Shown here: positions 5,742-31,385 of the stretch, piece by piece
How the letters are laid out: every line of letters starts with the position of its first letter
Position numbering within the stretch: position 1 is the stretch's first letter
Origin: Catajapyx aquilonaris
Taxonomy: Eukaryota
Direction: 5' to 3'
Assembly (NCBI GenBank): GCA_000934665.2
Contig: JYFJ02003371.1
Coordinates: 1-42,940 of the forward strand
Length of the DNA: 42,940 nt
The notes under the pieces: model-generated
The model's input: the letters and a program-made list of their open reading frames with translations, nothing else
Databases searched by the model: none
Told to the model about the DNA's origin: nothing
Made by a program: the position numbers and the translations under genes

Positions 5742-6664
5742 CCCACCCCCACTTCCTTCCAAACCCAACTAAAAAAAAAAGGGGGACCTATCCAGGGGGT
5801 TCTGTTCCTTCCCATATGTTCACCCATTGTTGCAAAAAGTGTTCATTGTTAAGTAACACACACAAAAAAAGAAGAGTTTAATGACGTGAAAATTAATCGA
5901 GGGGGCGGAATTTGGTTGTAGCTAAAAAGTGCTGCCAACGTGACAATGGGTCGCCAAACCTCCAGATGTGATCCTGTTTGTTGTTCGAGACAAATGTGTG
6001 TACATAAACATACATTACAGAGGAGACGGATGATATTACGGGAGGGCGTAACCTTTATTTTCTGTTGTGGAAAACTTGTGTGAATGGGAGGAATTCTGAG
6101 GGGGGGGAAATAATTGAGGCGAATACAGACGTTCGTTCAGTTTTTGTGAGAAAAATTCTGGTCCATTTATTTCACACCGTTGTTGTCCCCAGCTGTGCCC
6201 ATTTTTAGGCCTGTTCCAGCAATGACTGGTCCCGTGATAGGTGCGAGTTCAATGGAAAGGGTATTTTCCAAATGTAATTCATGGAGACCAAGCATGCACT
6301 TGTCCATCAGGAAAAGGAGGTTTGTCCCGTTACACAGGTTGGCTAGTCCACTAATCATATATTTACATGCCCATCGACAAACATTTTCAGGTCGGCTTCT
6401 CAAGGCATGGAAAATGGGTTACAACCTCTTGCACAGAAGCAGCGCTTCGTGTACTTTCAGCCGAATGACAAAAGTCCTTCAACTACTGCTAAGCGCATGT
6501 GCACAGTCGTGGAAGACCTTCCAGTACACACAGTAACTAGTCATCTTCAATACCTCCAGAGGTGTAATCGTGTATAGTACTCAAAATGAAATAAAAATAA
6601 AATTAATATCCGACGTGTGTACGTACAATATAGGAGGATTCCATTGTTCTCTGTCAGTTACATC

Positions 6665-6960
6665 AGAGGGGCAAACATTCGATTTCCGCGTCTCTCTGTT
6701 TGGGGTCGTTGCCAAGGCTATCGGCCATTTTGAAGTGTGGGTAACGCCAACGAGGTATAAATAGGGTCCGCCTTCTTTGATGGTTGTGGCGGCTATGGCA
6801 ACTATACACGGCAAGAACACGCGCGAATCAAAGATGGCGGACCCAATTTTTGCCTGTACCCTATATATACTTCGTTGGCGTTGCCCACACTTCAAAATGG
6901 CCGCCAGCCTTGGCAACGGCCCCAAACCGAGAGACGCGGAAATCGAATGTTTGCGCCTCT
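6665..6960. mobile_element. MITE with ~100 bp TIRs (family B), Harbinger-like
   Basis: agagg(g/c)gcaaacattcgatttccgcgtctctc...gtataaataggg is mirrored at the right end. A second copy lies at 16851-17131 and a related fragment near 1370-1430. Confidence 0.8.
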
Positions 6961-7339
6961 TATGTATTATAATATGCTCCCTGTCCAGATTGAGAAGATG
7001 GTCAAGGAGGTGTATAGTACTCAAAATGAAAAATAAAAATAATATCCGACGCGTGTACAGTATAGGAGGATTCCGTTGTTCATGTCCATTACATTCACAT
7101 AAGCTTGTGCGACCTTGAACAAAAAAAAAATATTTCGCCTGCGGCGGATTTTTCTCGGTTGTGTTCGTTTTACCTTTTGCAGCGCGTATTTTGCGAGATT
7201 TTGAAAATTCCTAAGGACATATTCGCATGTATGTAATATTTTCCCCCCTAATGCTTCATTCATAAAACGCAGTTTTAAAATGTGCGGTAATTTTCGGCGA
7301 AATACGGTATTTTTTTTTTGACTCGGGTGATACGGTAGC

Positions 7340-13500: not shown

Positions 13501-13548
13501 GATACCATCGAAGTCTTCCAGCAGCAGACCGGTGGACGGGCGCTGTAA
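7552..13548 (+). CDS. SUMO: Small ubiquitin-related modifier (SUMO2/3-type, Smt3), 96 aa; exons 7552-7575, 12091-12219, 13411-13548
   Basis: Spliced product: [96 protein letters not shown]. Both introns are phase-0 GT-AG, and AATAAA lies at ~13775. Exons 2-3 are unambiguous; exon 1 was assigned from the ATG context, donor site and size. Confidence 0.95.
8327..8587 (-). mobile_element. tRNA-derived SINE with a V-domain-like core, in SUMO intron 1
   Basis: Minus strand: A box (ggtggcggagtggtta), B box (aagttcgatcccc), core gttctctccgtgttcgcgtgggttttctcggggttctcccgtttcctccc, then a (TTA)n tail. TSD taacaaga at 8319-8326 and 8588-8595. Confidence 0.88.
8697..9901. mobile_element. Non-autonomous foldback/DNA element with ~160 bp inverted termini
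   Basis: 8697-8856 (...gtaagacctctgtggcggaatgaaagtactgaaacaaggcaggcgcacgtaagaccttcaccaattgatttaagctgtacc...) is the reverse complement of ~9746-9901. A diverged partial copy of the arm lies at ~8155-8220. Confidence 0.7.
9911..10399. mobile_element. Possible piggyBac-like non-autonomous element
   Basis: The ends ttaaacccattcgcaatacc and ggtagcgaaggggttaa are imperfect inverted repeats bounded by TTAA. There is a subterminal gccatcgcc / ggcgatggc match. Confidence 0.45.
10405..10834. mobile_element. Tc1/mariner (pogo/Tigger-like) MITE
   Basis: The ends TA-cacttgaatccagataaaaca and gctttatccggattcaactg-TA are imperfect TIRs with TA flanks. Confidence 0.6.
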
Positions 13549-13916
13549 TCTCTTGGAAATTCGTTACCCCTGGATTCTAGCTGATCCTGGCAAGGACATT
13601 TTAAGGGAAAGAGGGGGACTTGGTCCAACGTGTGAAGGATCGGCAAAGGAATTCTAGGTTTTTTTTATTGTTTTTTTTGCTGTTCGGGGAACCTGCTCTC
13701 CAAGATCTCATTCTTCGGAAGAACTATGTGTGCGTGTGTGTCGATTATTTTTAAAGGGTTAACTAAATCCTAATAATAAAGTGGTGCTTCAAAAATGCAG
13801 AAGTTTATTGTTTGGAAGGCAAAACTGTTGCATGTCTCGGAAGGAGCTCGTAGAACGCTCGTAGAATAATTCAGTTCACATTGCTGCATGTTCTACATCC
13901 ACATTTTCACACCAAG

Positions 13917-14277
13917 CCCCAGCTCAAGCCCATCGTCGTCGTGAAGGCTGTTGGTATGGATGGCAGGGTCATGAGGTTTAAGATCAAGAAGACCACCTGC
14001 CTTGGACGCTATAGGTGGCTAGTCTATTGTGGCGTGCATGTCAGTATCTCTCGCTGACCCATGAATGGTTTCTCATGATAAAACCAATTTATAGAGGCTG
14101 CCACAGCACCAGCTACGCTTCCTGTATGATGGCTGTCACATCAACCAAGCCGACACTCCCCTCTCCATGGACATGCGTGAGGGAGACACCATTTGCGTCT
14201 TTGAAGAACTGATCAGGGGCATTTTGACAGCTGCTGTGAATGTTCAGTGTGAGGTTCACAGGTTTGATTGTCACTGA
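13917..14277 (+). CDS. SUMO-like unit 1: duplicated exon 2 + exon 3 pair (13917-14039, 14095-14277) with no evident own first exon; alternative SUMO 3' exons or pseudogene
   Basis: PQLKPIVVVKAVGMDGRVMRFKIKKTTCLGRYRWLVYCGVH|RLPQHQLRFLYDGCHINQADTPLSMDMREGDTICVFEELIRGILTAAVNVQCEVHRFDCH*. The frame is open, the GTCAGT donor and intron position match SUMO, and LIRG replaces QTGG. The first acceptor (AAG) is weak. Confidence 0.7.
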
Positions 14278-14974
14278 CGGCTAATATAGTCGCCCATCCA
14301 ACATTAATCTTACACCTGTCAGCCTACGTATGTGGAAAAAGCTCAACCTGATGAGGATGTTGCAGCAAAAACAGACACGTGCACATAGCGTGAAAGGAAT
14401 GGATGAATCAGAATTTTGTGCGTGTGTTACTGTGGTGAATAAGTCAATTTTCAAGATTTTCCCGAAGATGTTGCGCATCAAGACCATTTATTTTTAGGAT
14501 TGTAGCCTGGCAAATAAACTGTCGTGAAAACTTGCCTATACCTGGTGGCGACCCCAGAATTTGTTGCATCGGAGAGTTTGAGTGGGGAATCCTTTACACA
14601 TGAAGACATACAAAACACTATTGCACTGCTTTTCACACTGTTTTAAAGACTCGGTCACGTTTTATATTATTATTGACTCATTAAGATTTATGTGAGCTAT
14701 GTTGTTATACGTGGCATTTCAAAATTTAATCATGTAAATTGGGAGGTAAAATATTAAATTATCACATGCTTGGGTCAGCCCCACGATAATACTATTGGAG
14801 TTACATTATTGCTCAGATTGACGATAACAGCTACAACTTGTATCACCGAGATGTTAATTTGGGCCCTCTGACTGTATCCGCTCCGTACAGTACTGTACGG
14901 AGAGGTATACTGAGAAAATACTATATACTACATAACTTAGCATACAGTATTTTTCCATTTTAGACTTTTTCTCA

Positions 14975-15365
14975 TTATACGTTTTCTCATTTAACTTATT
15001 CGACTTTTTCTCAATTAAAATTATACCCTTTCTCATTTAAAATTAGACGTTTTCTCATTTAAAGAAGTTATAACGGCTGTCTGTCTGTCTGTGAACAGGT
15101 ATCAGGGCATAAACCACCAGAGATAGCGGAAAACGGTTTTCGGATTCGGATTCAGCATGGCCAACATAGATTTCATGGCCAACTTCCGGTGACCGTCCAC
15201 TTCCGGTTTTCAGGGTCCACTCCTCTTATCATCCAAGGTCAAATCTGCATGCTTTAGGAACCCATTTTCCTTAGGTTGGCAACGAGAAATAAGACTTGTT
15301 GTCCTGCTGGCAATGAGAAAAAAGTATACTCGAATCGCACCCGAGTGATTTGACAAATGTTGGTT
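14975..15365 (+). mobile_element. DINE-1/Helentron-like non-autonomous element
   Basis: Repeated ttatac(cc/g)tttctcatt subterminal motifs, a (ctgt)n microsatellite at ~15078, and an inverted copy aatgagaaaaaagtata at ~15312 followed by a short hairpin (aatcgcacccgagtgatt). Confidence 0.55.
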
Positions 15366-15430
15366 GGTACTACATCATAGTTTAATTATTTTACGAAAGG
15401 AAATACGACGTCACATATTACGCTGCACTT

Positions 15431-15500
15431 TGCGCATGCGCGCGTCCCCAGCCTCGGTGCTGCCGTCTATAAGCTGAGCGAGCTGAGCTTTTACATCTCA
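15431..15500 (+). promoter_or_regulatory. Putative TATA-type promoter of SUMO-like gene 2
   Basis: TGCGCATGCGC (NRF1/Ewg-like) at 15431 and TATAAG at 15468, about 110 bp upstream of the ATG at 15576. Confidence 0.45.
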
Positions 15501-15575
15501 CTGACTCACTTAGTGAGACTGAGGAGGTGTGTCTGCTGCCCCTGTCTGCACCAGACAGAGACAAACACAGCAACA

Positions 15576-16134
15576 ATGAGCCGCTTCCTGGTGGGCTACA
15601 AGCAACTAGCCTTAGTGAGTATATACAGGGTGTGTCATATAATAAGGTTCGGTCACACATGCGGAGAAGGTCACACTTTATGTAGAGGTGTCGTTTGGTC
15701 TGAAGCCTTGCTAATGCACATATCATTCCCACTCTAGTGTATAGTAAGTGATGAGGAGCCTGCTGAGTCTGAAAAGGTCGTGATAACTGTCTATGACAGG
15801 ATGGGTGACGGGGTGGCCTATACGGTGAACAGAACTGTGAGGTTTGAGAAGATCATTGCTCATTACTGCAACTTTAATAAGGTCAGCATCCGCTTATTCT
15901 GTCTCCTGCATGCATCAGGAATTTGTTTCTGCGATGATTTAATCCTGCTATTTTTTTCCACAGAAAGTGCCAATGTCCCACATTCGCATGGAGCGCGGTG
16001 CGCAGCAGATTGCTTTGACTGACACCGTAGCCTCCTCGGGTTTGGAGGATGGAGACTTCTTTGAGATTCACCTGCTGATGGACCCGACTGACAACATACG
16101 TCTAGAGGGATCTCCAATGTCACGTCAGGCTTAA
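15576..16134 (+). CDS. SUMO-like gene 2, single highly divergent domain, 117 aa; exons 15576-15614, 15738-15881, 15964-16134
   Basis: MSRFLVGYKQLAL|CIVSDEEPAESEKVVITVYDRMGDGVAYTVNRTVRFEKIIAHYCNFNK|KVPMSHIRMERGAQQIALTDTVASSGLEDGDFFEIHLLMDPTDNIRLEGSPMSRQA*. It has SUMO's exon structure and phase-0 introns, AATAAA at ~16406, and no di-Gly. Confidence 0.8.
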
Positions 16135-16850
16135 GTGGGCGCTGCAACGGTGCATTGGTCGATCCTAGCTGCACCATGCACGACTCTAACGTTTCACTCT
16201 AGTTATTATACGGGTGCTAATTGCTGTCTGCGTGAGCCTATAGATTCTCTGAGAACGTCGAAGAGAAGTTGTGCAATGTTGGCATAAACGGACTCAGAAT
16301 CTATGTATTTTCTTATTGTTGTTTTGGACGTATTCCAAAGATCTCATTCCCATTTTGTATTCCAATGTTTCCATTATTTTTTTTTTAAAGAGCTGATTCA
16401 TGACCAATAAAATGTTGCCAAAGATGTCAATTATTATTCCTTGAAACTAATGCATCTAGAACTACTCATTGTGATGTCGGTTGTCAAGTCAGGCATATGG
16501 GTTATAATATAAATTTCAAATTCACACACATTTCATATTTCATGTGACGATTGCATCAATTGTTTGTAATTGAACAAATGCTAAAATTTAAATGAAGAAG
16601 CTTTGTCAACAAAATGTCCGTACAGGCTGCGGACAGGTATTTGCTCAATAATTGTTAAACTTGCACAGCACATTTCATATGAATATGACTGCATCGTCAG
16701 TACCAGGTATGTCAATCATCATCACCATCACCATCACGACATTTCATTCCCTATAAGGGGTAGTCAGCGATGACGGAAGCCGTAAGCTAACCCAAAATAT
16801 GAACAACCGGTATGTAATTGCAAAAAATGCTAAAATAATTTTAGCGTATA

Positions 16851-17131
16851 AGAGGCGCAAACATTCGATTTTCGCGTCTCTCTGTTTGGGGTGTTGACAA
16901 GGCTGGCGGCCATCTTGAAGTGTGGGGAACGCCAACGAGGTATAAATAGGGCCATCGCGCGTGTTCTTGCCGTGTAGTTGCCATGGCCGCCAAAACCATC
17001 AAAGATGGCGGACCCTATTTTTGCCTGTACCCTATTTATACCTCGTTGGCGTTCCCCACACTTCAAGATGGCCGCCAGCCTTGGCAACGGCCCCAAACAG
17101 AGAGACGCGAACATCAAAGTCGTTGGGCCTC
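16851..17131. mobile_element. MITE family B, copy 2
   Basis: Same TIRs as 6665-6960, with a degraded right end. Confidence 0.8.
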
Positions 17132-17569
17132 GTCAGAAACTGGAGTTATTTCGGTAGTTAAACTCTAGTTAAATCCATTGCCATTAACCATGGGGGTTAA
17201 TTTTTTGAAATTCCCGGTTCGAGCCGTAGATGTGGCAACACCGCTGGCAATAATGACAAAAAACCCGCAATAATAACTTTCCAATCAATTTTTAACCCCA
17301 ATTAATGACAGCCGGAGGTCCTTGTGTGACCAAATTAAATTAAACAAATTCCATCGAACGTCACCTGTTGCGACAGAGGACCGATTGGCAACGCCGCAAT
17401 GGAACAACGAAGAAGCTCGAGAGGATTCCAGAGCCCGCGTCTCTTTTCCTTTCCTCCAGAGTTCCAGAGAAATTCCTCCGGGATCAAATGACAGGAAGGG
17501 ACCACCAGGGTTCCTGAGGGCATTCCTGAGGGACTGGGGATTTTTGTTCTGGGCACAGGAAGAGCAGCC

Positions 17570-18211
17570 ATGGGCACGACCGGCAATGGCTCGGTGAGTG
17601 CGACATATGCGTCGAAGGGTGATTCAGGGACAATGTAGGCTGCAGGGGGTCATCTATTACTAATGGGAGGGTCATTATGTCACTATGGGTGTCGATTGGG
17701 CTAGGTTTGGCCTCCTGAGGGTCGACAACAAGGGATTAGTAGGGGTCAATACCAAAGGTCATTGACCGGGACACGTCAGGTGACACTTTGATAAAATTAG
17801 AATTGGTTCCAAAAATGTCAAAAAATGCTCTTTCATTTTGTCCTGAAGGGCTTCATACATGTGGTGCCTGAGTCGGAGTACATCACCATATGCGTGTATG
17901 ATCTGGACGGCAGTTGCGTGATGTTCAAGATGAAGAAGACTATGCAGTTTAGGAGGCTCATGTTGTGGTACACTAACCGTGCGGTCAGTATTGCCGTCGC
18001 ATCGTTTTGATGGATTTAATAAGACGGAATGAATTTACAGGGGGTGTCGATGTCCAGCCTCTGCTTCGAGCACAATGGTCAGCGCATCGGCAAGACCGAC
18101 ACTCCTCTTACCTTGGGCGTGCAGGATGGAGATTCCTTTGTCGTGAACCTCTTGAGGCATTGCGTGTGGACTGGAGACGCCATGGAATTTACTATGCATC
18201 GTGGCGACTAA
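17570..18211 (+). CDS. SUMO-like gene 3, single domain, 109 aa; exons 17570-17593, 17849-17983, 18041-18211
   Basis: MGTTGNGS|GFIHVVPESEYITICVYDLDGSCVMFKMKKTMQFRRLMLWYTNRA|GVSMSSLCFEHNGQRIGKTDTPLTLGVQDGDSFVVNLLRHCVWTGDAMEFTMHRGD*. The 24-nt first coding exon is the same length as in SUMO. Confidence 0.85.
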
Positions 18212-18730
18212 AGACAAGTTCCGAGAGGGGGGGCGCTCTACATGGTTTTTCACTCTCGTTTTTTGTATGCGAATGACAATCTTCTGGCTGTGAGCCTGGA
18301 TCCTGAGGAAGCTCATGATGTTCACGGGAAGAAGGCAGTGTTTGAAGAAGCATCTTGCCACCCTTTTTATTGTTATTTTGGAAGACTCACTTTCGATGAT
18401 CTCATTGAGAAGTTTTGTATGCCAATTTTTAAAAAGCTGAATCGTGACCAAAATAAAACGGTTAATGGTTATTGTTTGTCAACTAAAATTAACAAACCCG
18501 TTCGAAATATTCAGGAATATCAGTCGTGCCCGAGGTCGTGCCATGATGGCGTCAATGATTGTTGTTGGTTACAATGCTATGGAAACAGGCTGTGTTTGTT
18601 TGCTTGTTTGTCCATGGCAACCATTGCGCAAACACAAGATGCAGATGAGATTCATCTCCTTTACGTTGCCCAATAATAACCTATCTTTAGCAGTTCATTC
18701 AACGGACATAATGGGCAACCAAGTCGCTAA

Positions 18731-18842
18731 AGGCCGGTATCAACGTACGAGATTCTCGCATACGCATGCCCAGATACGAGAAAGTTGAAATATATTTCAA
18801 CTTTCTCATATCTGGGCATGCGCAGTTGGCTCCCCGCGGCTT
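18731..18842. mobile_element. Internally deleted copy of the 3696-3870 MITE
   Basis: taa-aggccggtatcaacgtacgagattctcgcatacgcatgcccagatacgagaaagttgaaa...gcgcagttggctcc matches the first copy. Confidence 0.75.
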
Positions 18843-19392
18843 TAACAATGAAAGTTTTGTGACCTCAGTACGCTTTTATTGCAAGGTCAGATTGTATCGC
18901 ATTCAAGAAAAACAATGAGAAAAACAAGAAAACAGGCGTGTTATCCCCCCCCAAAAAAACCAGATTGTTGACGCCAATTAAATTCCAACCATGCGAAAAC
19001 TTATCTTGACATTCCCGCAATTCTTGCCATGATTTTGCGAAGTGGCAATGCTGCACTAAATTACGTAACAAACTTTTAGCCACTGCACTGTGTGGCATGT
19101 TTATAACAATAATTGATTGGGTATTCGGCTAACCCCATGCATGTTTATAAAAACCTTTATTTACAGCAGGAAATTGTAAATGATAATGAAAAGTAAAATT
19201 AGTTCATTTCTTCCTTGTTGTGTAAGCCGATTTGGCAACGCAGTGCATGACTTAAGAGTGCAAAAATTTGCATTCATATGAAACCAGAGAGTGTCCGCCA
19301 AGCAAAGCCGTAATTAGGGTCAGACGGAGGCGTCTCCTGGTTGTACTCTTAGGCCTGACACTGCAGGACATACCATACGAGAAGGCACAACA

Positions 19393-19988
19393 ATGAGCAA
19401 CATGCTGCATTACGAGCAGGATTACGCAATGGTAAGTGTCACATGATGATTTCGAACAAATGGTGTACTCCCTGGGTGATGGAGGATCACTTTATTATGT
19501 GTCGTTTAGTCTCGGATGATAACTAAAGTGTGCTTTTACGTTGCAAAACAACACTACCTGTGAGATAATGTGAATTGTTGCGATTGGGTGATTTTCCGCT
19601 GTATTCGCAGGGTTACGTGCATGTCGACCCAGAGTCGGAGTACGTCTACATCGAGATCGTCTCGGAAAAGGCTGGGCTGCTGGTGCTATTCCGCACGAAG
19701 AAGACCGCACCGCTTCAGGATCTAATGCTGCAGTATTGTGCACAAGAAGTATGTCCACTTCACACCTTCCAGTTGCAATTATGTACACATTAATTTATTA
19801 TCAATTATTTTCAGAGGGTGCTGATGTCCGACATTCGGTTCGAGCTGAATGATCGGCTAGTCAAGGAGACTGATACGCCAAACTCACTGCATATGCAGGA
19901 GGGCGATTCCTTTGATGTTTACCTGCGTACTGACCATTTCGGACCTGGACAGCTGATGGAATTTGCGATGCCCAATGTCCGGGATTAA
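19393..19988 (+). CDS. SUMO-like gene 4, single domain, 116 aa; exons 19393-19431, 19611-19748, 19815-19988
   Basis: MSNMLHYEQDYAM|GYVHVDPESEYVYIEIVSEKAGLLVLFRTKKTAPLQDLMLQYCAQE|RVLMSDIRFELNDRLVKETDTPNSLHMQEGDSFDVYLRTDHFGPGQLMEFAMPNVRD*. The frame is open and the splice sites are canonical. Confidence 0.85.
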
Positions 19989-20076
19989 TCCTACTCACGT
20001 TGTACGCACCTCGACTGTCTGCTGGATTTGTATTCTAGTTACACAGCGATGTAGTAGCGAGCTGAGTCAAAAGAAC

Positions 20077-20636
20077 AGTAAGGTGAAGTGGGGTAAGTGC
20101 ATACACGGGGTAAGTGCATAAACTGGCCGCCATATTGGAATGAAAATGGCTCACATGCTCACCTCTTGTGATGTGCAGCTACACAAAAGAGTGCCTGACA
20201 TGTTTTGGTGTCGTCAGCCATTTTCATTCCAATATGGCGGCCCCGTGTACGCACTTACCCCGTGTATGCACTTACCCCGTGTACACACTTACCCCCGGTG
20301 TACGCACTTACCCCGTGTATGCACTTACCCGGTGTAGGCACTTACCTTGTGTATGCACTTTATACCCCGTGTATGCACTTACCCCGTCTATGCACTTACC
20401 CCGTGTACGCACTTACCCGGTGGAGGCACTTACCCCGTGTATGCACTTACCCCGTGTACGCACCTACCCCGTGTACGCACTTTCCCCGTTTATGCACTTT
20501 CCCCGTCTATGCACTTTCCCCATCTAGGCACTTTCCCCGTCTATGCACTTTCCCCGTCTATGCACTTACCCCGTCTATGCACTTTCCCCGTGTATGCACT
20601 TACCCCGTGTATGCACTTACCCCACTTCACCTTACT
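20077..20636. mobile_element. Foldback element whose TIRs contain a 17-bp minisatellite
   Basis: The left end agtaaggtgaagtggggtaagtgcata mirrors the right end tatgcacttaccccacttcaccttact. There is also an inner inverted pair, ccgccatattggaatgaaaatggct / agccattttcattccaatatggcgg. Confidence 0.8.
20241..20625. repeat. 17-bp tandem repeat (gcacttaccccgtgtat)n, about 22 copies
   Basis: The tandem array is directly visible and explains the repetitive ORFs annotated at 20140-20761. Confidence 0.95.
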
Positions 20637-21402
20637 TTAATGTTCGAAGCGGGAGGAATGCAGGTGGTTTATGCCATATGCACATATATCATGTGCCATT
20701 GTCATTACACGTTACGCTGTCACTTACACCTGAGGGCGTAAGAATTGTTAGGCGTTCATGAGAAGATGCTGCATGTCTATTGTTTGAACGACCAGACGGT
20801 TGACAATCTACTTTTTATTATCTCACCCTTTTGTACTTTACATGTCCATTACTTACAAGAGTTGCATAATTGGTATATTAATAAAATGTTTGCAATAATG
20901 CTGGTGATTGTTCTTGAATCTAAAATGGGCCACATTTTATGCATATGAGTGTTGTACTAATTGCCAAAAAAAAAAAAGTCATCTGCAACAATATTGGCGA
21001 CTAAAATTAGCAATTTTTCAAGACTTTTTTTTGAAACTTCCCGCCTATTATTCGAACACGTTCTATAATCGACATTTGTGGAATAGATATGGCAACGTCG
21101 CAATAACATTTAAGTTCAATAAATGAGAAAATGACAATTTAAACTATCATCCGGAAATTTAATTATAAGCCGTTGATTAATTAATGTGAATTAATTAGAA
21201 CAGTGTTGCCAGGTGTATGCTTCAGATGTGGCAACCCCGTACAATTTCGAACGTGTGGTTCTGGTCAAAGAGCTTTGGTTCTGGTGTTCTAATCCTCTGG
21301 TTCTAATCCTATGTTCCAAAGGTCGTTCCAGGTCAGTTCTCCTTCCCTGTTCTCTGGGCCTGCCTTCCCCTATTACACCGGAAGGACAAGAAGCTGCTGC
21401 CC

Positions 21403-23207
21403 ATGGACCGCATCAACTACGCCAGCAGCAATCATGGCCTGCTGAAGCCTGAGTGGATCAACTTGAGAGTCTTTGGTCGGAATGGCAATATGATATTTAA
21501 AATGAAGAAGACTGTGAAGCTGAACAAGCTGATGGAGAAGTACTGCGAGCGTATGGTCAGAACTTTCACTTTTCTCTTCATGCTAAGTTCCGTAGCACAG
21601 GGTATAACAAATATGGCTTCAAACAAATACACGATCTAGTAGCATGCATCACTAGTTAATGGTCGGTTTCACTGAGCTCGGTAAATGATAAAACCAGGTT
21701 TCTTTAGGAAAATCCCTAATGTTTGTATGGGTTTTCCGAAAGAAACCTGGTTTTATCATAACTCGATGAAACCAGTCCATTTAAAAAAATAATCTGAAGA
21801 TTTCTGCTACAAAATTGCGGGTGTCTGAACTGATGATGACCTCGTGATATCTTCCAGGTTCTATTGAGGTCTGACGTTCATTTCTTGTTCAATGGTCACC
21901 GTATCGCTGGAAGTGATACTCCTGACTCCATGGGCATGAAGGAGAGAGACAACATCAAGGCTGTCGTGCGTTGTCCTGATGGAAGAGAAGGACGTGTCCA
22001 GCGTTTCAGCGCTACAACTAGAAAGGTAGGTCTTTGTTGTCGTTTTTGAGGCCGTCTCAGGGGTCATTTATGCGGAGAACCAAGAAAACTGGACCAGAAT
22101 TTGGTCGATGACAAAGTCGTGTTACCTCACTCCTATGAGAGGACCTCACTCCATCCAGCATTGGAACAAAATTAGTTAAATGATATTTACTCATGTTTTG
22201 CCAGAGTACTTATGCTCCTACTAACTTTTCACATTAAGGCCCATTCACACAGGCCGTCGACGGTTTTGGTCTTTGGTCCGTGGCGTCAATGCGACCAAAG
22301 ACCAAAGCCAGCGACGACCTGTGTGTGTGGGCCTTTATGCGCACATTACTGACAATTGCATTTCTGTTTCTCTGCTCTATCCACAGGATCACCTGAAGCC
22401 TGAGTGGATCTACTTGAGAGTTGGTCGGAATGCCAATATCATATTTAGAATGAAGAAGACTGTGAAGCTTACCAAGCTGATGAAGACGTACTGCGAGCGT
22501 ATGGTCAGAACTTTCACTTTTCTTTGATGCTAAGTTACGTTGCACAGGGTAACAAATATTGCTTCAAACCGGCCCATTTCAATAATAATCTCAAGATTTC
22601 TGCTACAAAATTGTGGTTTACGTGTGACTTGGTCAATAGTTTCTCGAATGAGAATGATTTCTAACCTTGTAATCTTGTGAAATTATTTTTAGGAGCTGTT
22701 GAGGTCCAGTGTTTCGTTCCTGTTCCGTGGCGAGGAGATCCCTGGCACCGCCACACCTGACTCCTTAAACATGAAGGACAGAGATCGCATTGAAACTGTC
22801 AATTCTCTCTCTCGACTCCAACCGAAGAATCACATGGGGTCCGAGAGAATCATCTTGAATGTGTTTGGTGAGGATGGGCTTCTCCTCAAATTTAAATTGA
22901 AGAAGACTACGAACCTTGCCTACTTGATGGATAAGCATTGCGAGCATCAGGTCAGTACTTCCGACATTATTTTTTTCTGATTTGAAGTCACATTTTCAGA
23001 TTTGGTTGAGAGCAATGGTTTCCAGATGGACTTGTCCACGAGTCAATTGGAATTAATCACATGATATATTTCCAGGGGTTGTTGAGGTCCACTGTTCTTT
23101 TCATGTTCAACGGACAACAGATCAAGGATGGCAACACTCCCAGCTCGTTACGCATGAAGGACCAAGATCGCATTGACACTCGTATTTTAAAAGCTCCAGC
23201 TGCCTAG
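21403..23207 (+). CDS. SUMO-like gene 5: three tandem SUMO-like domains, ~275 aa; exons 21403-21555, 21858-22025, 22387-22503, 22693-22950, 23076-23207
   Basis: Domain 1: MDRIN...KPEWINLRVFGRNGNMIFKMKKTVKLNKLMEKYCERM|VLLRSDVHFLFNGHRIAGSDTPDSMGMKERDNIKAV... Domain 2: DHLKPEWIYLRVGRNANIIFRMKKT...YCERM|ELLRSSVSFLFRGEEIPGTATPDSLNMKDRDRIETV... Domain 3: ERIILNVFGEDGLLLKFKLKKT...HCEHQ|GLLRSTVLFMFNGQQIKDGNTPSSLRMKDQDRIDTRILKAPAA*. All exon lengths are multiples of 3. Confidence 0.85.
21660..21779. mobile_element. Short palindromic MITE (family C) in an intron of gene 5
   Basis: ggtcggtttcactgagctcggtaaatgataaaaccaggtttc...gaaacctggttttatcataactcgatgaaaccagtcc. A better-preserved copy lies at 28556-28683. 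Confidence 0.75.
22237..22334. mobile_element. Small MITE with TTA TSD (Harbinger-like) in an intron of gene 5
   Basis: tta-aggcccattcacacaggccgtcg...cgacctgtgtgtgtgggcct-tta. Same family as window positions 1-61. Confidence 0.8.
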
Positions 23208-23829
23208 GTTTGTAGTTCGGTCGGGGTGAGTGATCAATGGTGAACCCTGAACAAGTATTTGGTTGCATCTTGTCATAAAAGGGTTTAGGAATAAACTGGT
23301 ACCAACTATGAATAATGAGGATCAACCACTTGCACAGAATTTATTATTGATCATTGATTTTGCAGTTATTGCGTACGTAGGTCCTAATTAATCTCTCTGC
23401 TGTAACCCTAGGTTTTGTGGAAGTTGAACTGAAGAATTAAGATAAAGAGGATGTGCTCGACTGTTGGAAGGGAATACCATGCCACTTTTGTGTTTCCTTC
23501 CCTCCTTTCCGAGCACTCACTACGAGATCTCAGGTTTCATGAAGTTCATTGTTGTTAACGTTCGAATTGTTCAAATAAAATGTTTTGGAATGGACGTGGC
23601 AATGCTGCAATGAACCACTGCAATTTCCTTTTTAGAAACTTTCAAAAGCCAAATTATTAGCGAGTAAGTGTTGCCAGGTGTCTGATTAGGTTCGGATGTC
23701 GTGGCAACCATCGTTGGAGTCTGTGCTGTCAAACGGAACAGAATAAAGATTCTTTCCAGGTCGGTTCTTCTGTCCCGGGTTTGCATATAATCTGGGCCAA
23801 TGTATGCTTCCACATACGGAAGGACTGCC

Positions 23830-25837
23830 ATGGACCACTCGGGAGGCTGCTGCACCAGGCATGGCTTGAAGACGGAGAGTATCAAGTTGAACGTTGTTGG
23901 ACAGGATGGAAGCACTGTCATGATGATGAGGATGGAGAAGCAGCGAAAGCTTGAGAACCTGATGGAAGCAGTTTGTGTCCGTCAGGTCAGTGTCGCTTTA
24001 TTACCACACTTGCAGCATATAGAATGATTTTTTTGGTATGACTCTCATCATGGTGTTTGCCAATTCCCAGGGGCTGCTGATGTCTGATGTTCGTTTCCTC
24101 CATAATGGTCACCTTATCGATGAAAGTGACACCCCTGCCTCCTTGGGCTTGCAAGAGGGTGACAACATCCGTGTTGTCGTTCGGCCGGGAAGAACGATGT
24201 CCAACATTTCCACATCGGTATACTTCTTGTTCTATTCACGGCTATAATTATGTAGGATACTTTATATTGACACCTGCTGTGCGTCTATTTCCCCATTCCA
24301 TCCACAGCAGTTGGAGCCTGAGAAGATTGTCTTGAATGTCTTGGAGGAGGTTGGCCATCAAAAGATATTTAAAGTGAAGAAGACCGTGAAGCTTATCAAG
24401 CTGATGGAGATGTATTGCAGTATTGTTGTCAGTAATTTCACTTTTTCTCTGATGAATTGAAGTAATATTTTCAGATTTGATTAAGAGCAATGCTTTCCAG
24501 ACTTGTCCGAGTCTGTGTATAGGAACTATTGCAGTCCATTTATTGTAAGGAAGTGATGTGGTTCTGACATGAATCAAAAGGCAAAGCGCTTGTTCTTGGC
24601 CAGTTGTACTGTACAGTACGTCAGTGCGGTACATCTCACTAACAAAATGATTTTTTATTTTAAAATTACCCCAGTTGATCTCAAGATATCTGCTTCTGTC
24701 TGCCTTGCTCAACATTTCCTGGAATTCGAATTATTTCTCATCTCTCATGATTTCCAGGGGCTGTCGAGGTCTGACGTTTGTTTCCTGTTCAATGATCACC
24801 TTATTGCCGGAAGTGACACCCCTACTTCCTTGGGCATGAAGGAGGATGACAACATCCAGGTTTTCTTACGAGTTGGTGTGTCTCTTCCGGAAGGAAATGC
24901 CCAGCGTTTCAAGGCACAAGCTGAAAATGTAGGTTGCTACGTGTAGGTTCCTGTAAATCCTGTTTTGATTTTTTTTTTCTCCGCCATCGGTGATTAAGCT
25001 GTTGACAATATTTTTTTTGCTGACGTGCACTTTTGTTTGTGATTGAAAATAATTTCTTGGACTATGATGGCCACTGGCGATATATTTTCCTTCCTCCGCA
25101 GCATGGCTTATTGAAGCCTGAGTTGGAGAGGATCACGTTAAACATTCTTGGGCGAGATGGCAGCATTCTCATGATAGCAAAGCATCTGAAGCAGCAACAG
25201 CTTCAGAGCCTCATGACAAGATTTTGTGACCATCGGGTCAGTATCACTAGTTTCAGCTTCAACACTGGCTGGAAGGATGATCACATGATGTAATCAATTT
25301 CCAGGGGCTGCTGAGGTCCGATGTTCGTTTCCTCTATAACGGCCACCTTATGATTGAAAGTGACACCCCTGCTTTCTTGCGCATGAATGAGGGAGATTCC
25401 ATCCAGGCTGTCTTACGAGTTGATGTGTCTCCAACAGAAGGACGTGCCAAAGGTTTCGAGGAACAGGCTAAAAATGTAGGTCTTTGTTGCCTTTTTTTTT
25501 AATGTTTGCCACATTTTGTCGTTTATGTAGAGACTTCCTGACTCCATCCACAGAATCACCCTGGAGCATGAGAGTATCACCTTGAATACCTCTTGTCAGG
25601 ATGGCCATCGCATGATTTTTAGAGTGAAGAAGACCGCCAAGTTTATCAAGGTGCTGAAGATGTATTGTGAGCGTCGGGTCGGTACTTCCACATACCTCTA
25701 TCTGATTTTAAGTAGGGCCAATTCCAACATGAAAATTCAAGTACGTTTCTCTCTCTGGCAGCTCCACACCTGCCTCCTTATACATGAAGGACCAGGATCG
25801 CATCGATGTTGTCATTCTAAATGTGCTGGCTGCCTAG
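23830..25837 (+). CDS. SUMO-like gene 6: three intact plus one degenerate tandem SUMO-like domains; exons 23830 (or 23800)-23985, 24071-24217, 24308-24427, 24758-24928, 25102-25236, 25305-25475, then 25531/25554-25677 and ~25742-25837
   Basis: Domain 1: MDHSGG...ESIKLNVVGQDGSTVMMMRMEKQRKLENLMEAVCVRQ|GLLMSDVRFLHNGHLIDESDTPASLGLQEGDNIRV... Domain 2: QLEPEKIVLNVLEEVGHQKIFKVKKT...|GLSRSDVCFLFNDHLIAGSDTPTSLGMKEDDNIQV... Domain 3: HGLLKPELERITLNILGRDGS...|GLLRSDVRFLYNGHLMIESDTP... The 4th domain carries a +1 shift at its homologous acceptor and a deletion in its last exon. Confidence 0.75.
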
Positions 25838-26042
25838 GTTTGTACACTTACAATATATTAGAGGTTCATTGGAGAGGTCACAATGACCAATAATATGACT
25901 GCATGTCAACAGTGTAACCGGAAAAGGGCCAGGGAACGTTTGTTATTCATTGTTGTGAGCATTGTTGGATAGGCAAACTTTTGCGGATTTGGATGTACTT
26001 GTTCTGTGTCCTTCTCATCAGCCTGGGACTCTGGTGAACAGA

Positions 26043-27014
26043 ATGGAGACTTTTAGCAGGAATATTTCCTGGTGTTCACAAGAAACCTTGTCTGCATCTA
26101 GTGTCGAAGCGACTGATGAGGAGGAAGAGTCTTTGGACAACTCATCGGTAGACAGCAACACTGCAGGCGAACAGGACCAGGACCAGCAGGTGAACAGAAA
26201 TGCAATTTCACGAACTTTGACGACTATTGTGTATCCCCCCCACACTTAATCCACAGCCTGACTTGAAGTCGGAGTTCATCGAGTTCAACATTGATTTTTC
26301 GGACGACAGCATGATGGAAGTGGAGATGAAGAAGACCGCGCGGTTTAAGAAGCTGAAGGTAGCTTTTTGTCGCCGTCTGGTCAGTATCACTACCGCATAT
26401 CTTGTTGATCACATGAATCCGATGCAGAACTCTGAAAGCAATGATTTATGTGATGATGTGCTCAACTTCCAGAAGCTGTTGTGGTGTCAGGTCCATTTCC
26501 GGTTCAACGGTCGCGCTATCTTTGGAGGTGACACCCCAGCCTCCTTGGGCATGAAAGAGGGCGACTACATCAAGGCTTTCATACAGGTGATTGAGGCTAG
26601 ATTGTGATTATAGATTATTTCCAGGTATATTATTGACAATAAAGGTGATTTTTTTCCCCTTCTGCATCTGCAGGATGTTGAGAAGGAGGAAGTGGAATAT
26701 ATCCACCTGAAAATCATGGAGCAGGATGGGGAGCATTTGAGGGTCAAGATGCCGTGGATTGTGGATTTTGGATGGGTGTTGATGGCATATTGCGATGTTA
26801 GGGTCAGTACTTTGCACTTTTCTGTGATCTGAAGTAGAAACATTTTGTCGGCTCATTATATTATTGTCAGGATCTGCAGACGTCCGATGTTTACTTCACC
26901 TTCCGTGGCCAGAAGATCCTCGACAGCTCCACACCCGACTCCTTAGATATGAAGGACAGAGACAGGATTGAAGCTGTCATTCTAAACCCGCAGGACGCAA
27001 GTGCCGAACAATAA
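26043..27014 (+). CDS. SUMO-like gene 7: acidic Ser-rich N-terminus plus two tandem SUMO-like domains, ~218 aa; exons 26043-26189, 26257-26379, 26473-26586, 26674-26802, 26871-27014
   Basis: METFSRNISWCSQETLSASSVEATDEEEESLDNSS...QDQQ|PDLKSEFIEFNIDFSDDSMMEVEMKKTARFKKLKVAFCRRL|KLLWCQVHFRFNGRAIFGGDTPASLGMKEGDYIKAFIQ|DVEKEEVEYIHLKIMEQDGEHLRVKMPWIVDFGWVLMAYCDVR|DLQTSDVYFTFRGQKILDSSTPDSLDMKDRDRIEAVILNPQDASAEQ*. AATAAA lies at ~27129. Confidence 0.85.
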
Positions 27015-27658
27015 GACCAGTGGTTTCAAATGACAACAATGCACGGATCAACCACACTCTTATTGTTATGATTTATTTGGAGGGAGTCATTTACAAAGAT
27101 ATGATTGTGTATGCCCATCTTTACTTTTAATAAATATGCGGCTTGAAACCTAATGATGTTTATTGCTTGGAGACACTAAAGTACCTGACAGGGTTTTTTA
27201 ATTATTCGTTTTATGAAATATATGTAATGGCTGTATTGTAGAGGAGGCGGAAAAATGTGTTGTGAAACATTGTTGCCCCGGCTAACAATGACCTGAAAAG
27301 GACTTGAACGAACTTGTTTTAAGATATTTGAAACTTTATTTCCCGCTTATTTCGAACAATGTTCCAATAATTGACATTCGATGTGGCAACACCGCAATCG
27401 CATACCTCTTCGTCAAATTTTTTTTTTAAACAAATTATAATTTAAGCACCAGCATTAGCTCCAATCATTCCGTTGATTAATAATTAAGGCATAATTAACA
27501 ACTGGATGTTAAATATTATTGCAATAGTGCTGACTGTTATGTGGCGATTTGACAACCCCGCAGCGGGAGCATTCGATTCTTGTTCATGTCTGGGCAGAAC
27601 AGGCCAGAGGTCATTCCAGGTCACCTCTTTTTCCTAATTGCCTGGTTCTGGTGGTGAA

Positions 27659-29769
27659 ATGGAGACCTTCTCTGATGATATGTACTTGGCTCTGGAGGAA
27701 TCCCTGACCGCTGCTGCTTCCACGCACGATGGTGGCTCATCATCCATGGACCACTCTGCTGCTGGAGGCAACACTTCTGCAGCTGGACAGGTGATGAAAC
27801 AAGTTCTTATTAGAATATGCCGGCTACATATATAATAAGGTTACATTTATTGAGAGGGCAAGTCCTGGTCCAGCAGCCACACCTTCCCTAATACTACCAC
27901 ACACATATTCCTATCCCTCACCGCCACATCACCTCCTAGAGCAGCCCAAGAACAAAGCCAAGTCTGTTATCTATGGATGATGTAATCATTTGGAGACACT
28001 CAAGGGAGGAGGAGGACAATGGCATTGACTGGGAAGCAACCAGTTGATTTCCTCAGACTGCGGATGATGGGCTGCTCGGGTTGGCTGCACGGTTTAAATC
28101 AAGTGTTTTTTATTTTTTTTAAAAACCATCATGGTTTTTTAAAATGAAAAGTAATCCCAATTACTGCTAAAATTCCCCTTCCAAAGCTGAAGGGGAATCC
28201 CCACGTTCCATGGGAAATCCCCTTTAGCAATATCCAATCATACAGTGGTTATTGCCTGGTGTGCTGAAGCAAAGAGCTGTTTGTGAAATTTAACGGAAGA
28301 GCATAGACCGGTTTGGCTAAGTTTAATATATTGCTGGTAGAAAACGTGATATATTGTTTGGATGTCATTTGATGAAGTTAAAAAAAGAAGCGAGAAAAGG
28401 TGTAAGGGCCAAATTATGTAAAAAAAATGGGCCAAGTAGCCAGAATGAAAAATCACCTATCAAAATGTGCATATCGTCGCTGGCAAGGAAAATGCCGTGA
28501 TTGTATGCAGGTAATGTATGTATATTGTATAGTCATTTATCATTTTATCTTTTATAGGGCCGGTTTCACCGATCTCGGTATATGATAAAACCAGGTTTCT
28601 TTAGGAAAATCCATACAAATATGTAGGGATTTTCCGAAATAACCCTGGTTTTATCATATACCGAGCTCGATGAAACCGGCCCTTATAGTGTTTAAATCAT
28701 TCATAAGGCTGCTGGAGGCATAGAAGACAGACTGTTAGTGCTTTTTGAACTTAGGTTAAAAGTTAAGTTAATTAGTTTTATACAATGCCACTATTTTGTT
28801 ATTTTGTTTACTTGTATTGAAACATTTAAGCGACATTTCTGTGTGAAATCTCTACATTGTAGTTTTCAAAATTAATACCATATTTTGAGATGAAGCTTTC
28901 AATTTGCTGAATAATTATAATTTTGAGCAAGATATACATTTTCTTAATCAAAAGTATAACTTATTATTTACCTCACTATGAGTTGGGAATGGGCATATGT
29001 AGATGATAAGAAGTCACAACTTGTTTAAATGAATTTAAACCAAAAATTTGAAATTAAACCTGGTTTAAACAAAAAAAAAACTGTTCTTTTTCCAACCCCT
29101 AGCTCTTGTCCGAGTTGCAAGCAGTCTGAAAATTGGCAATGCTTTGCGATTTATGTTTATATGTGCAGTTTGTTGTTTTGTGGTGAAATGCATCAATGTA
29201 TGACTCCGCTTCTGTCCTATGTTGCGGGTTTCAAAGCATTGGTGAGACGTTCGCAGGTGGTGGCAATTGCATATAAAAAACTCGAACAACAGCGGCATAT
29301 GCTCAGGAAGGAACACCCCTGCTCTTGCATTTTTAGTGTCATTTTTTCCTGTTTTGCCGTAGGATTTCTTCTCTGTACACTCCTATAACTTGCTCCTACT
29401 ATTATTATTGACACTGGTATCACATTTGCAGGATCACCTGATGCCTGACACTCTCCTGTTGCATATCCTGGGGCCGCATGATGGCCTTCAAATTGGATTT
29501 AAAGTGAAGAAGACCATGAAGCTTGCCGAGATGGTGGCAGTGTATCGCAATGTTTGTGTCAGTATACTTCTTTTTCCCTGATTTTCATACAGTCGGCTAA
29601 GAGTTTCCAGACCGACGCTTATTGTAAATCTCAATCTATTTAACAGGGAAGATCCGACATTTCCTTCATGTACTGCTCCCGGGAGATCACCGACAGCTGC
29701 ACTCCTGCCTCATTACACATGAAGGACCAAGACCAGATTTTTGCTGTGCTGAAACAGCAGGCCATTTAG
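27659..29769 (+). CDS. SUMO-like gene 8, N-terminal extension plus single domain, ~126 aa; exons 27659-27790, 29432-29557, 29647-29769
   Basis: METFSDDMYLALEESLTAAASTHDGGSSSMDHSAAGGNTSAAGQ|DHLMPDTLLLHILGPHDGLQIGFKVKKTMKLAEMVAVYRNVC|GRSDISFMYCSREITDSCTPASLHMKDQDQIFAVLKQQAI*. Exon 1 is homologous to gene 7 exon 1 (METFS); its joining across the 1.6 kb intron is inferred. Confidence 0.75.
28556..28683. mobile_element. Palindromic MITE family C with TAT TSD
   Basis: tat-agggccggtttcaccgatctcggtatatgataaaaccagg...cctggttttatcatataccgagctcgatgaaaccggccct-tat. Confidence 0.8.
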
Positions 29770-30410: not shown

Positions 30411-31385
30411 ATGGCCAACTCCGTGGTGATCAACGCCACTGGCAAACACACCGCAACGGTGAGTACGCACCCTGAAGTACTCCGCATGCGACTAACTGAT
30501 GCAAATTGGCCAATAAATCAATGCCTATCTTTCCCCAGCTGATTTTCCTACATGGACTTGGCGATACAGGGTAATAGTGCGTACATAATTCATTGTCGGG
30601 GGCGGAAAAGCTGACGGATTTATTTGGTTGCAGGCACGGCTGGGCCAGCACCATGGCCATGGCTAGGCAGCCGCACGTCAAGGTCATCTGTCCGACAGCG
30701 TAAGTATTATTGACCAACAAAAAAAATCAATCGATTACCTAACCGGTTTTCCATCAGTCCGACAATGCCAGTGACCCTGAATGCGGGTTTCCGGATGCCC
30801 TCGTGGTTTGACCTCCGCACGTTGGATGCTTCCGGGCCTGAGGATGTGGATGGGATCAAGAAGGCGACGGATGTTGTGCATCAGATGATAGACGAGGAGG
30901 TGAAGAAAGGGGTGCCGTCGGAAAGGATCGTGCTCGGAGGGTTCTCTCAGGGCGGAGCGTTGGCCTTGTACTCGGCCTTGCGCTACCCGAGGAGGTTGGC
31001 CGGAGTCGTTGCGCTCTCGTGCTGGCTTCCGCTGCATAAGGAGTTCCCAGCGGTTAGTTTGCGCAGAGTACGTAACCTGACACGATAATTTCCGCTTTGT
31101 TTTGCAGGCTGCTTTGGGCAATAAAGATATCCCGTTCATGCAATGCCACGGGGACTGCGACCCTGTTGTTCCGTATCGTTGGGGCCAGATGACAGCCTCG
31201 GTTCTCAAGCAGTTCCTCAAGCAGCTAGAGTTCAAGACCTTCCAGGGGATGATGCATTGCTCTTGTGATGAGGTGAGTTGTAGTGCACGATATGCACAAC
31301 AGGCAAATGAATTATCTGCTGGTTTTCTTTGCAGGAAATACGCGACATGAAGACCTTCGTCGAGAGGTGTGTACCTGCGGTGTAA
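30411..31385 (+). CDS. Apt1: Acyl-protein thioesterase 1 / lysophospholipase (LYPLA1/2 family), 218 aa; exons 30411-30458, 30539-30570, 30634-30699, 30758-31052, 31108-31272, 31335-31385
   Basis: [31 protein letters not shown]...[23 protein letters not shown]...[12 protein letters not shown]...[11 protein letters not shown]...[25 protein letters not shown]. The GFSQG nucleophile and the catalytic Asp and His are present. The six exons splice in frame. Confidence 0.95.

Follow-up and report, generated by a model that had tools for sequence, protein, structure and literature searches.

Candidate three-domain SUMO-like concatemers without junction Gly-Gly in a SUMO paralogue array of Catajapyx aquilonaris

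Does an animal genome encode proteins in which several SUMO-like domains are joined head to tail and cannot be cut apart? This question is raised by a locus of Catajapyx aquilonaris on contig JYFJ02003371.1 (NCBI GenBank assembly GCA_000934665.2), of which we analysed positions 1 to 42,940 of the forward strand (the whole stretch of 42,940 nucleotides is called the window, and all coordinates refer to it). A preliminary description of the sequence had proposed that two genes, gene 5 (21403-23207, + strand) and gene 6 (23830-25568, + strand), join SUMO-like domains head to tail, three in the first and three or four in the second. Both belong to a same-strand array, 18 kb long, of 15 SUMO-like domains that adjoins a canonical SUMO gene, in a window with short GT-AG introns. 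Domains are written below as g5d1 for domain 1 of gene 5, and so on; coordinates of exons and other features are collected in Table 1.

The gene 5 model consists of five exons (153, 168, 117, 258 and 132 nt), all multiples of three and in phase 0, which are spliced from GT donors to AG acceptors into a single open frame (275 codons and a stop) that holds three SUMO-like domains. An AATAAA motif lies at 23290, 83 nt past the stop. The six exons of gene 6 are likewise multiples of three and all open, and they hold three intact domains, followed by the relic of a fourth. Every junction of the two three-domain frames (four in gene 5, five between exons 1 to 6 of gene 6) is GT/AG and in phase 0. 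Frame 0 of the spliced models has no internal stop, against 15 to 24 stops in each other frame. A SUMO profile, built from 46 single-domain SUMO proteins among the phmmer matches described below, found three domains in spliced gene 5 (i-E 4.5e-28, 6.7e-25 and 1.8e-29) and three in spliced gene 6 (i-E 2.4e-24, 3.5e-24 and 1.4e-20), with the first domain beginning at residue 13-14 in both models. Rad60-SLD was the best Pfam family for all seven exon translations submitted; four reached the gathering score, and three short half-domains stayed below it. The best solved matches were SUMO-1/2/3, indicating a SUMO-type ubiquitin fold. The proposed head-to-tail arrangement is thus borne out for three domains in each gene, whereas the fourth domain of gene 6 falls away. 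Its N-half exon (25554-25677, 124 nt, donor gtcggt) carries a +1 shift that runs into a stop at 25569-25571 after 5 codons, and its C-half exon (25762-25837, 76 nt) lacks ~19 codons of the half-domain. These exons 7 and 8 are the only broken units, and both come after the modelled stop.

No whole domain of genes 5 and 6 is contained in a single exon, and the splice signals between domains deserve a closer look. The donors AAG/gtaggt after 22025 and AAT/gtaggt after 24928 and 25475 (the slash marks the exon end) are present exactly where they had been described; the g6d1-g6d2 junction has TCG/gtatac after 24217, and no alternative phase-compatible donor for g6d1 was found by reading the sequence. 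It had also been claimed that these donors follow a linker of ~15-20 residues at the place where SUMO has QTGG and its stop. The single-domain paralogues at 17849-18211 and 19611-19988 have C-terminal tails that align with the linker, and these tails have a stop where the linker has its donor. When the three gtaggt donors were aligned, invariant columns numbered 24 of 60 in the linker-coding part, 6 of 6 in the donor and 4 of 34 after it, so that conservation drops at the predicted exon end. The internal N-half exons of genes 5-7 each open at a conserved ...ccacag or ...cgcag acceptor, and in all four the open sequence before the exon lacks an in-frame ATG. The linker introns measure 361, 90, 173 and 78 nt, and no AATAAA occurs within gene 5 or gene 6, these introns included; reading through the gene 5 linker intron revealed no mini first exon. 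In an alignment of upstream regions, homologous blocks containing a GTTGCCA...TGGCAAC palindrome precede only the first exons of genes 5 and 6; this palindrome has three matches in the window against 0.01 expected.

The same donors admit another explanation, in which they are unused, translation stops a few codons into each supposed intron, and the domains further on are either untranslated 3' sequence or units of their own, so that the locus makes single-domain proteins only. Read-through of the three gtaggt donors meets a stop after 7, 5 and 8 codons, the donors are below consensus, and g5d1 and g6d3 share their first 14 intron bases, so that the read-through tail could itself be coding. However, the internal N-half exons begin at conserved acceptors and have neither an ATG nor upstream promoter blocks like those of genes 5 and 6, their linker introns have no AATAAA, and untranslated downstream domains would not remain open. 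Moreover, exon 4 of gene 5 is an unbroken open stretch from domain 2 into domain 3, so that this junction needs no splicing at all. The best solved match of exon 4 is 4bkg_A, a linear diSUMO-2, which aligns co-linearly over the junction (query 6-86 with chain 48-126, E 2.9e-19). We consider production of single domains alone very unlikely, and the multi-domain coding structure of genes 5 and 6, judged from frames and splice signals, is probably real. The identical 14 bases (22026-22039 and 25476-25489) follow exon ends that differ, and the read-through tails would hold two adjacent cysteines.

A further claim, that no Gly-Gly separates the domains, also stands. Gly-Gly is missing from both junctions of gene 5 and both of gene 6 (0 of 4), and from all six domain ends (0 of 6). 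Gene 5 contains no Gly-Gly anywhere, and gene 6 contains one, at residue 5 in the N-terminal arm of g6d1, which is also the only Gly-Gly in any non-canonical row of the array alignment. Maturation by SUMO proteases, conjugation and cleavage into monomers all require Gly-Gly. Release of monomers by SUMO proteases is not expected because the motif is lacking between the domains, and the products could presumably be neither matured, conjugated nor cut. Polyubiquitin-type and poly-SUMO precursors (for example the matches P0008 and P0012) resemble genes 5 and 6 in carrying ubiquitin-fold repeats head to tail in one frame, but their junctions retain Gly-Gly and they are processed to monomers. ISG15 and FAT10 also fix two ubiquitin-fold domains in one polypeptide; they are ubiquitin-like rather than SUMO-like and are modifiers that keep a C-terminal conjugation motif, which genes 5 and 6 do not have.

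Where do these domains come from? With 12 half-domain translations from the window itself as queries, tblastn over the whole window (E < 0.05) found 15 N-halves and 15 C-halves of SUMO-like domains in strict alternation between 12091 and 29760, all on the + strand; the same search gave no SUMO-like half-domain on the - strand. A phase-0 intron at an identical position splits all 15 domains, the canonical one included, and the donors of the N-halves start with GT in 15 of 15 and read gtcag in 13 of 15. Descent from SUMO is thus visible in a common gene structure, namely adjoining same-strand units that share an intron position. Because intron position and donors are common to the 15 domains, the array is, on this structural evidence, derived from the local SUMO gene. 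The end QQQTGG occurs only in the canonical gene, and in the array alignment each of the 14 non-canonical domains lacks Gly-Gly at its C-terminal end. All 14 domains other than the relic are open; the fold core contains at least seven indel events, all in frame, and outside the relic every indel is in frame.

We propose that genes 5 and 6 are lineage-specific SUMO-like concatemers that arose by tandem duplication of the neighbouring canonical gene. Their internal N-half exons begin at the same point as the second exon of that gene, and for this reason the second exon of the next copy can be captured once a tail gains a donor. In this way a paralogue tail that had already lost Gly-Gly would have gained a donor and been spliced to the existing acceptor downstream, giving the linker-type junctions. 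The g5d2-g5d3 junction would instead have arisen by one deletion of intergenic DNA that fused a terminal domain to the first exon of the next gene, since a terminal-type C-half is joined there in frame to sequence resembling the first exons of genes 5 and 6. Trees of the half-domains came from a short search over 129 columns and leave many forks unsupported. The C-half tree places g5d2, g5d3, g6d4, g7d2 and the domain at 29432-29769 in one terminal-type clade (SH-aLRT 99), with g5d1, g6d1-3 and g7d1 as linker types; the N-half tree groups the domains differently. In genes 5, 6 and 7 alike, linker-type domains come first and a terminal-type domain last, which suggests that the joined architecture predates the three genes. 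Internal duplication and exchange would have come later, for example between the N-halves of g5d1 and g5d2, which are 90% identical over 183 nt, intron included. If the genes are expressed, the locus would display the stepwise birth of multi-domain ubiquitin-like proteins, through a tail donor followed by capture of a second exon, or through fusion by deletion.

If spliced as modelled, the products would be cytosolic or nuclear proteins of 275 and ~305 residues, with three SUMO-fold domains on flexible linkers. Their most likely mode of action would be non-covalent, multivalent binding, in which they offer a built-in poly-SUMO-like surface to proteins with several SUMO-interacting motifs (SIMs). 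The core of a SIM binds the groove between the second strand of SUMO and the following helix (Xu 2014, PMC4083429). In the same work, the affinity of RNF4 SIM2,3 for head-to-tail linear SUMO fusions was in line with that for isopeptide-linked chains. The groove signature in the strand-2/helix-1 segment is kept in four of the six domains, g5d1-g5d3 and g6d2, which retain the groove aromatic residue and a Lys-x-Lys-Lys-Thr run. Compared with the local SUMO, their groove segment is 50-56% identical and the rest of their fold 36-43%. Because the signature is kept throughout gene 5 and lost from domains 1 and 3 of gene 6, gene 5 could plausibly offer a poly-SUMO-like binding surface, while in gene 6 such a surface is doubtful.

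Several observations weigh against functional concatemers of this kind. As to binding, g6d1 and g6d3 have lost the groove aromatic residue and one lysine, and the groove segment shows no higher conservation than the remaining fold, either across 13 domains (0.34 and 0.35) or across the six of genes 5 and 6 (0.48 and 0.49). Gene 5 is strongly basic (52 K+R against 30 D+E) where SUMO is acidic, and its binding partners may differ accordingly. As to splicing, three of the four linker donors are weak (AAT/gtaggt twice, TCG/gtatac once). As to constraint, the ratio of non-synonymous to synonymous substitution rates (dN/dS) of pairs involving genes 5 and 6 is 0.72-0.96 with intervals that include 1, for example 0.75 for g5d1/g6d2 and 0.96 for g6d1/g6d3. 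The youngest pair, the N-halves of g5d1 and g5d2, differs by seven non-synonymous changes and one synonymous change, and its exon divergence (8/~105 nt) resembles that of its intron (4/~66 nt). Gene 6, moreover, already carries a decayed fourth domain. Finally, in 1.84 billion representative proteins phmmer found none related at more than 40% identity (with gene 5 exon 4 as query, 157 matches at E <= 0.001, none below 1e-30, the best at 32-40% identity), and a word-based search for longer relatives of the same exon gave none.

These points would suit a history in which genes 5 and 6 are non-functional by-products, that is, chimaeric units made by unequal crossing-over and gene conversion and drifting to pseudogenes, with open frames as recent leftovers. 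The dN/dS values near 1, the relic, the lack of close relatives, the discordant N-half and C-half trees, which indicate a mosaic history, and a transposon-like insert in gene 5 intron 1 all fit it. Neutral drift would, however, seldom leave the frames open. In 4000 simulated runs at 0.20-0.25 substitutions per site (half the synonymous distance between nearest domains; substitutions were counted, not indels), the open frame survived in 0.8-2.1% of cases for gene 5 and in 0.25-0.8% for gene 6, that is, at most ~2% and 0.8% for frames of 275 and 300 codons. In addition, indels are out of frame only in the relic, the splice junctions that are needed are all GT/AG and in phase 0 with broken units only past the modelled stop, conservation drops sharply at the linker donors, and pooled dN/dS over six non-overlapping domain pairs is below 1 (0.65, bootstrap interval 0.52-0.82). 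A global comparison of exon with intron identity was too noisy from unequal intron lengths and was not used. Taken together, the open frames, in-frame indels and intact splice sites argue against plain decay of genes 5 and 6, and the signal of amino-acid constraint on them is weak. We consider a by-product origin rather unlikely, and for expression and function of the two genes the sequence leaves the balance about even. That they are lineage-specific SUMO-like concatemers acting non-covalently is, at a similarly even level of confidence, the best explanation of the locus.

The preliminary description did not mention the N-terminal arms, which hold five of the six psi-K-x-E motifs of genes 5-7 (LKPE, LKTE and LKSE); the motif stands just before the first strand in 5 of 14 paralogue domains (g5d1, g5d2, g6d1, g6d3 and g7d1), and the second exon of the canonical gene has none. 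In human SUMO2/3 the chain-forming site is VK11TE (Urena et al., PMC4866545). According to that paper, all insects and crustaceans examined (Pancrustacea) have lost the N-terminal consensus lysines and cannot form SUMO chains, and ectopic chain formation harms Drosophila. The arm lysines could make the proteins of genes 5-7 SUMO acceptors, and those in LKPE and LKTE could let the products of genes 5 and 6 accept SUMO. The genes might also be functional without being SIM decoys: their domains could bind enzymes of the SUMO pathway, as RENi domains bind Ubc9, or serve as lysine-bearing acceptors, or belong to a fast-evolving germline or conflict family. NFATC2IP and Esc2 contact UBC9 and SMC5/6 through SUMO-like domains (PMC11065178, PMC13645794), the arm motifs are of a kind that insect SUMO3 lacks (PMC4866545), dN/dS is high in a tandem array with ongoing rearrangement, and two of the three intact gene 6 domains have a diverged groove. 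On the other hand, it is SUMO itself that the domains match (of 98 solved chains matched, the 60 listed carry SUMO or Smt3 names or are fusion constructs, with none named RENi), and genes 5 and 6 have no RENi-like polar N-terminal region. Such other roles seem to us unlikely. Non-covalent concatemers are still the reading that we prefer, and its narrower form, in which they act specifically as poly-SUMO mimics toward multi-SIM readers, is tentative and on balance doubtful. More speculative still, and distinctly improbable, is a scenario in which an insect lineage unable to form SUMO chains re-created poly-SUMO in its genome, as protease-proof three-domain proteins with returned arm lysines that engage or compete for multi-SIM readers (the RNF4 homologue Degringolade), evolving fast in a tandem array, perhaps under genetic conflict.

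How new is such a protein? Among the best 150 phmmer matches to gene 5 exon 4, 61 carry at least two near-complete SUMO-like domains; Gly-Gly is found at no junction in 28 of these, at every junction in 21 and at some in 12, and 13 of the 61 have at least three domains and no internal Gly-Gly. In a further search, from which the names came, the named multi-domain matches are plants, mostly legumes, at 22-28% identity to its query (other rows 42-53%), and some multi-domain matches may be mis-merged gene predictions.

In grasses, the DSUL/GSUL2 locus is reportedly covered by a further reference, Srilunchang et al. 2010. The locus (maize DiSUMO-like, rice concatemers) is a hypervariable tandem array of SUMO paralogues in which single-domain genes stand beside head-to-tail concatemers formed by independent fusions, and in several of these concatemers internal and/or C-terminal di-Gly is gone, which rules out cutting into units (Hammoudi et al. 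2016, PMC6680281). The resemblance to genes 5 and 6 is close, down to the placing of domains of one concatemer in different clades. However, genes 5 and 6 are non-plant genes with three domains, a linker exon end bearing a donor, and psi-K-x-E arms, and they are known from sequence alone, while DSUL has a published developmental role. By structure they are of the same kind as the grass concatemers and not of the same lineage: common descent is not indicated because the flanking gene is nearest to insects (80-82%) and the domains are built on the local animal SUMO structure.

The second published parallel is the RENi family (Rad60/Esc2/NIP45, Drosophila CG4449), described as "non-conjugatable poly-SUMO fusions" with a long polar low-complexity N-terminal region and two SUMO-like domains (Novatchkova et al. 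2005, PMC549199). Genes 5 and 6 likewise encode consecutive SUMO-like domains without a terminal double glycine. RENi, though, is an old conserved family with two divergent domains, whereas genes 5 and 6 have three domains and no long polar N-terminal region, have their domains split at the same intron position as in the neighbouring SUMO gene, and find their best matches in SUMO itself. No chain named RENi was among the 60 solved chains listed of 98 matches, a comparison in which RENi domains were not compared directly by profile. Engineered linear poly-SUMO-2 (4BKG, and the fusions of the RNF4 studies, PMC4083429) also joins SUMO domains head to tail by peptide bonds. It is a laboratory construct of identical canonical SUMO-2 units, while genes 5 and 6 are natural, with longer linkers and divergent domains whose groove segments are 33-56% identical to the local SUMO. 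ISG15 and FAT10 are named in the discussion of PMC6680281. The novelty implied by the preliminary description was therefore overstated, as non-conjugatable SUMO-like concatemers had already been published for grasses (PMC6680281) and for RENi (PMC549199), and genes 5 and 6 look like an independent arthropod, probably insect, case of that concept. A literature search for natural SUMO-derived concatemers in animals, which most subscription journals and supplements lay beyond, gave only RENi, plant DSUL and laboratory fusions.

Expression of genes 5 and 6 would make them a natural animal case of a hard-wired, uncleavable poly-SUMO-like protein recently derived from SUMO, and a natural test of multivalent SUMO surfaces without conjugation. 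According to published work, insects and crustaceans do not form SUMO chains (PMC4866545). Even without expression, the locus stands as a clear fast-turnover array of SUMO paralogues, of a kind already known from grasses.

Table 1. Coordinates of genes 5 and 6, of the other array units and of neighbouring features in the window
Feature	Positions	Strand	Remarks
Gene 5 exon 1	21403-21555	+	Start codon, N-terminal arm with LKPE, N-half of domain 1
Gene 5 exon 2	21858-22025	+	C-half of domain 1 and ~15-residue linker; donor AAG/gtaggt at end
Gene 5 exon 3	22387-22503	+	Arm with LKPE, N-half of domain 2; no upstream in-frame ATG
Gene 5 exon 4	22693-22950	+	C-half of domain 2, junction and N-half of domain 3 in a single exon
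Gene 5 exon 5	23076-23207	+	C-half of domain 3 (terminal type) and stop codon
Gene 6 exon 1	23830-23985	+	Start codon, arm with LKTE, N-half of domain 1; earlier in-frame ATG 23800 possible
Gene 6 exon 2	24071-24217	+	C-half of domain 1 and short linker; weak donor TCG/gtatac
Gene 6 exon 3	24308-24427	+	N-half of domain 2
Gene 6 exon 4	24758-24928	+	C-half of domain 2 and linker; donor AAT/gtaggt at end
Gene 6 exon 5	25102-25236	+	Arm with LKPE, N-half of domain 3
Gene 6 exon 6	25305-25475	+	C-half of domain 3 and linker; donor AAT/gtaggt at end
Gene 6 fourth-domain relic	25554-25837	+	Frameshifted N-half, truncated C-half
GTTGCCA...TGGCAAC palindrome, gene 5	21205-21235	+	~170 nt upstream of start codon, in blocks common with gene 6
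GTTGCCA...TGGCAAC palindrome, gene 6	23670-23708	+	Upstream of gene 6
Whole array	12091-29769	+	Canonical SUMO, four single-domain paralogues, gene 5, gene 6, two-domain gene, last single-domain gene; tblastn and alignment
Canonical SUMO2/3-like gene	12091-12219 + 13411-13548	+	Ends in QQQTGG and 3 residues
Single-domain paralogue without Gly-Gly	13917-14277	+	
Single-domain paralogue without Gly-Gly	15756-16134	+	
Single-domain paralogue without Gly-Gly	17849-18211	+	
Single-domain paralogue without Gly-Gly	19611-19988	+	
Gene 7	26043-27014	+	49-codon acidic, serine-rich first exon (26043-26189), then two SUMO-like domains
Gene 8	27659-29769	+	ATG at 27659; first exon opens with the same five residues as that of gene 7
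Acyl-protein thioesterase (Abhydrolase_2) exons	30714-31347	+	Directly after the array; protein matches

Downstream of gene 6, the two domains of gene 7 are joined with almost no linker, from a donor CAG/gtgatt after 26586 to an acceptor before 26674. Left unspliced, this donor is followed by a stop 6 codons on, and the intron contains an AATAAA at 26638. The 49-residue acidic first exon with two domains recalls RENi, as a resemblance only. No AATAAA occurs between the end of the gene 6 relic and the start codon of gene 7 (25838-26042), and splicing from the phase-0 donor after 25475 to the gene 7 acceptor at 26257 would keep the frame, so that a five-domain read-through transcript from gene 6 to gene 7 is conceivable. 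In gene 8, a single terminal-type domain (29432-29557 and 29647-29769) lies ~1.6 kb downstream of the first exon, and its N-half exon has no ATG.

The array is followed by the thioesterase gene, whose exon at 30765-31040 has its best named matches in insects at 80% identity (one other record at 82%), with crustaceans at 73-74% and mites and a spider at ~75%. This one exon is the basis for reading the locus as that of an arthropod, most likely an insect. A protein atlas placed the flanking exon in acyl-protein thioesterase clusters and gene 5 exon 4 in a ubiquitin-like, mostly arthropod cluster, and these placements gave nothing further. A comparison with viral contigs gave 16 pattern matches, none of them confirmed.

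The heptamer TGGCAAC, one arm of the palindrome upstream of genes 5 and 6, has 19 sites in the window against ~2 expected from base composition, among them 11165, 15277, 17082, 17233, 17386, 19233, 21090, 21229, 23702, 27384, 30070 and 30220. Many of them precede array genes or the thioesterase gene, and some fall within a repeated element; the heptamer may be a promoter element of the organism. A repeated element with similar open stretches in its two copies occupies 6581-7210 and 16946-17390, the latter copy within the array upstream of the unit at 17849. The insert in gene 5 intron 1 (21650-21786) is a palindromic, miniature-transposon-like sequence of ~140 nt, with a second copy at 28550-28690 that matches in both orientations at 82-83% identity. 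A minisatellite (20077-20640) with a unit of ~17 nt and copies 84-96% identical lies after the fifth array unit and before gene 5; it is open in several frames and looks non-coding.

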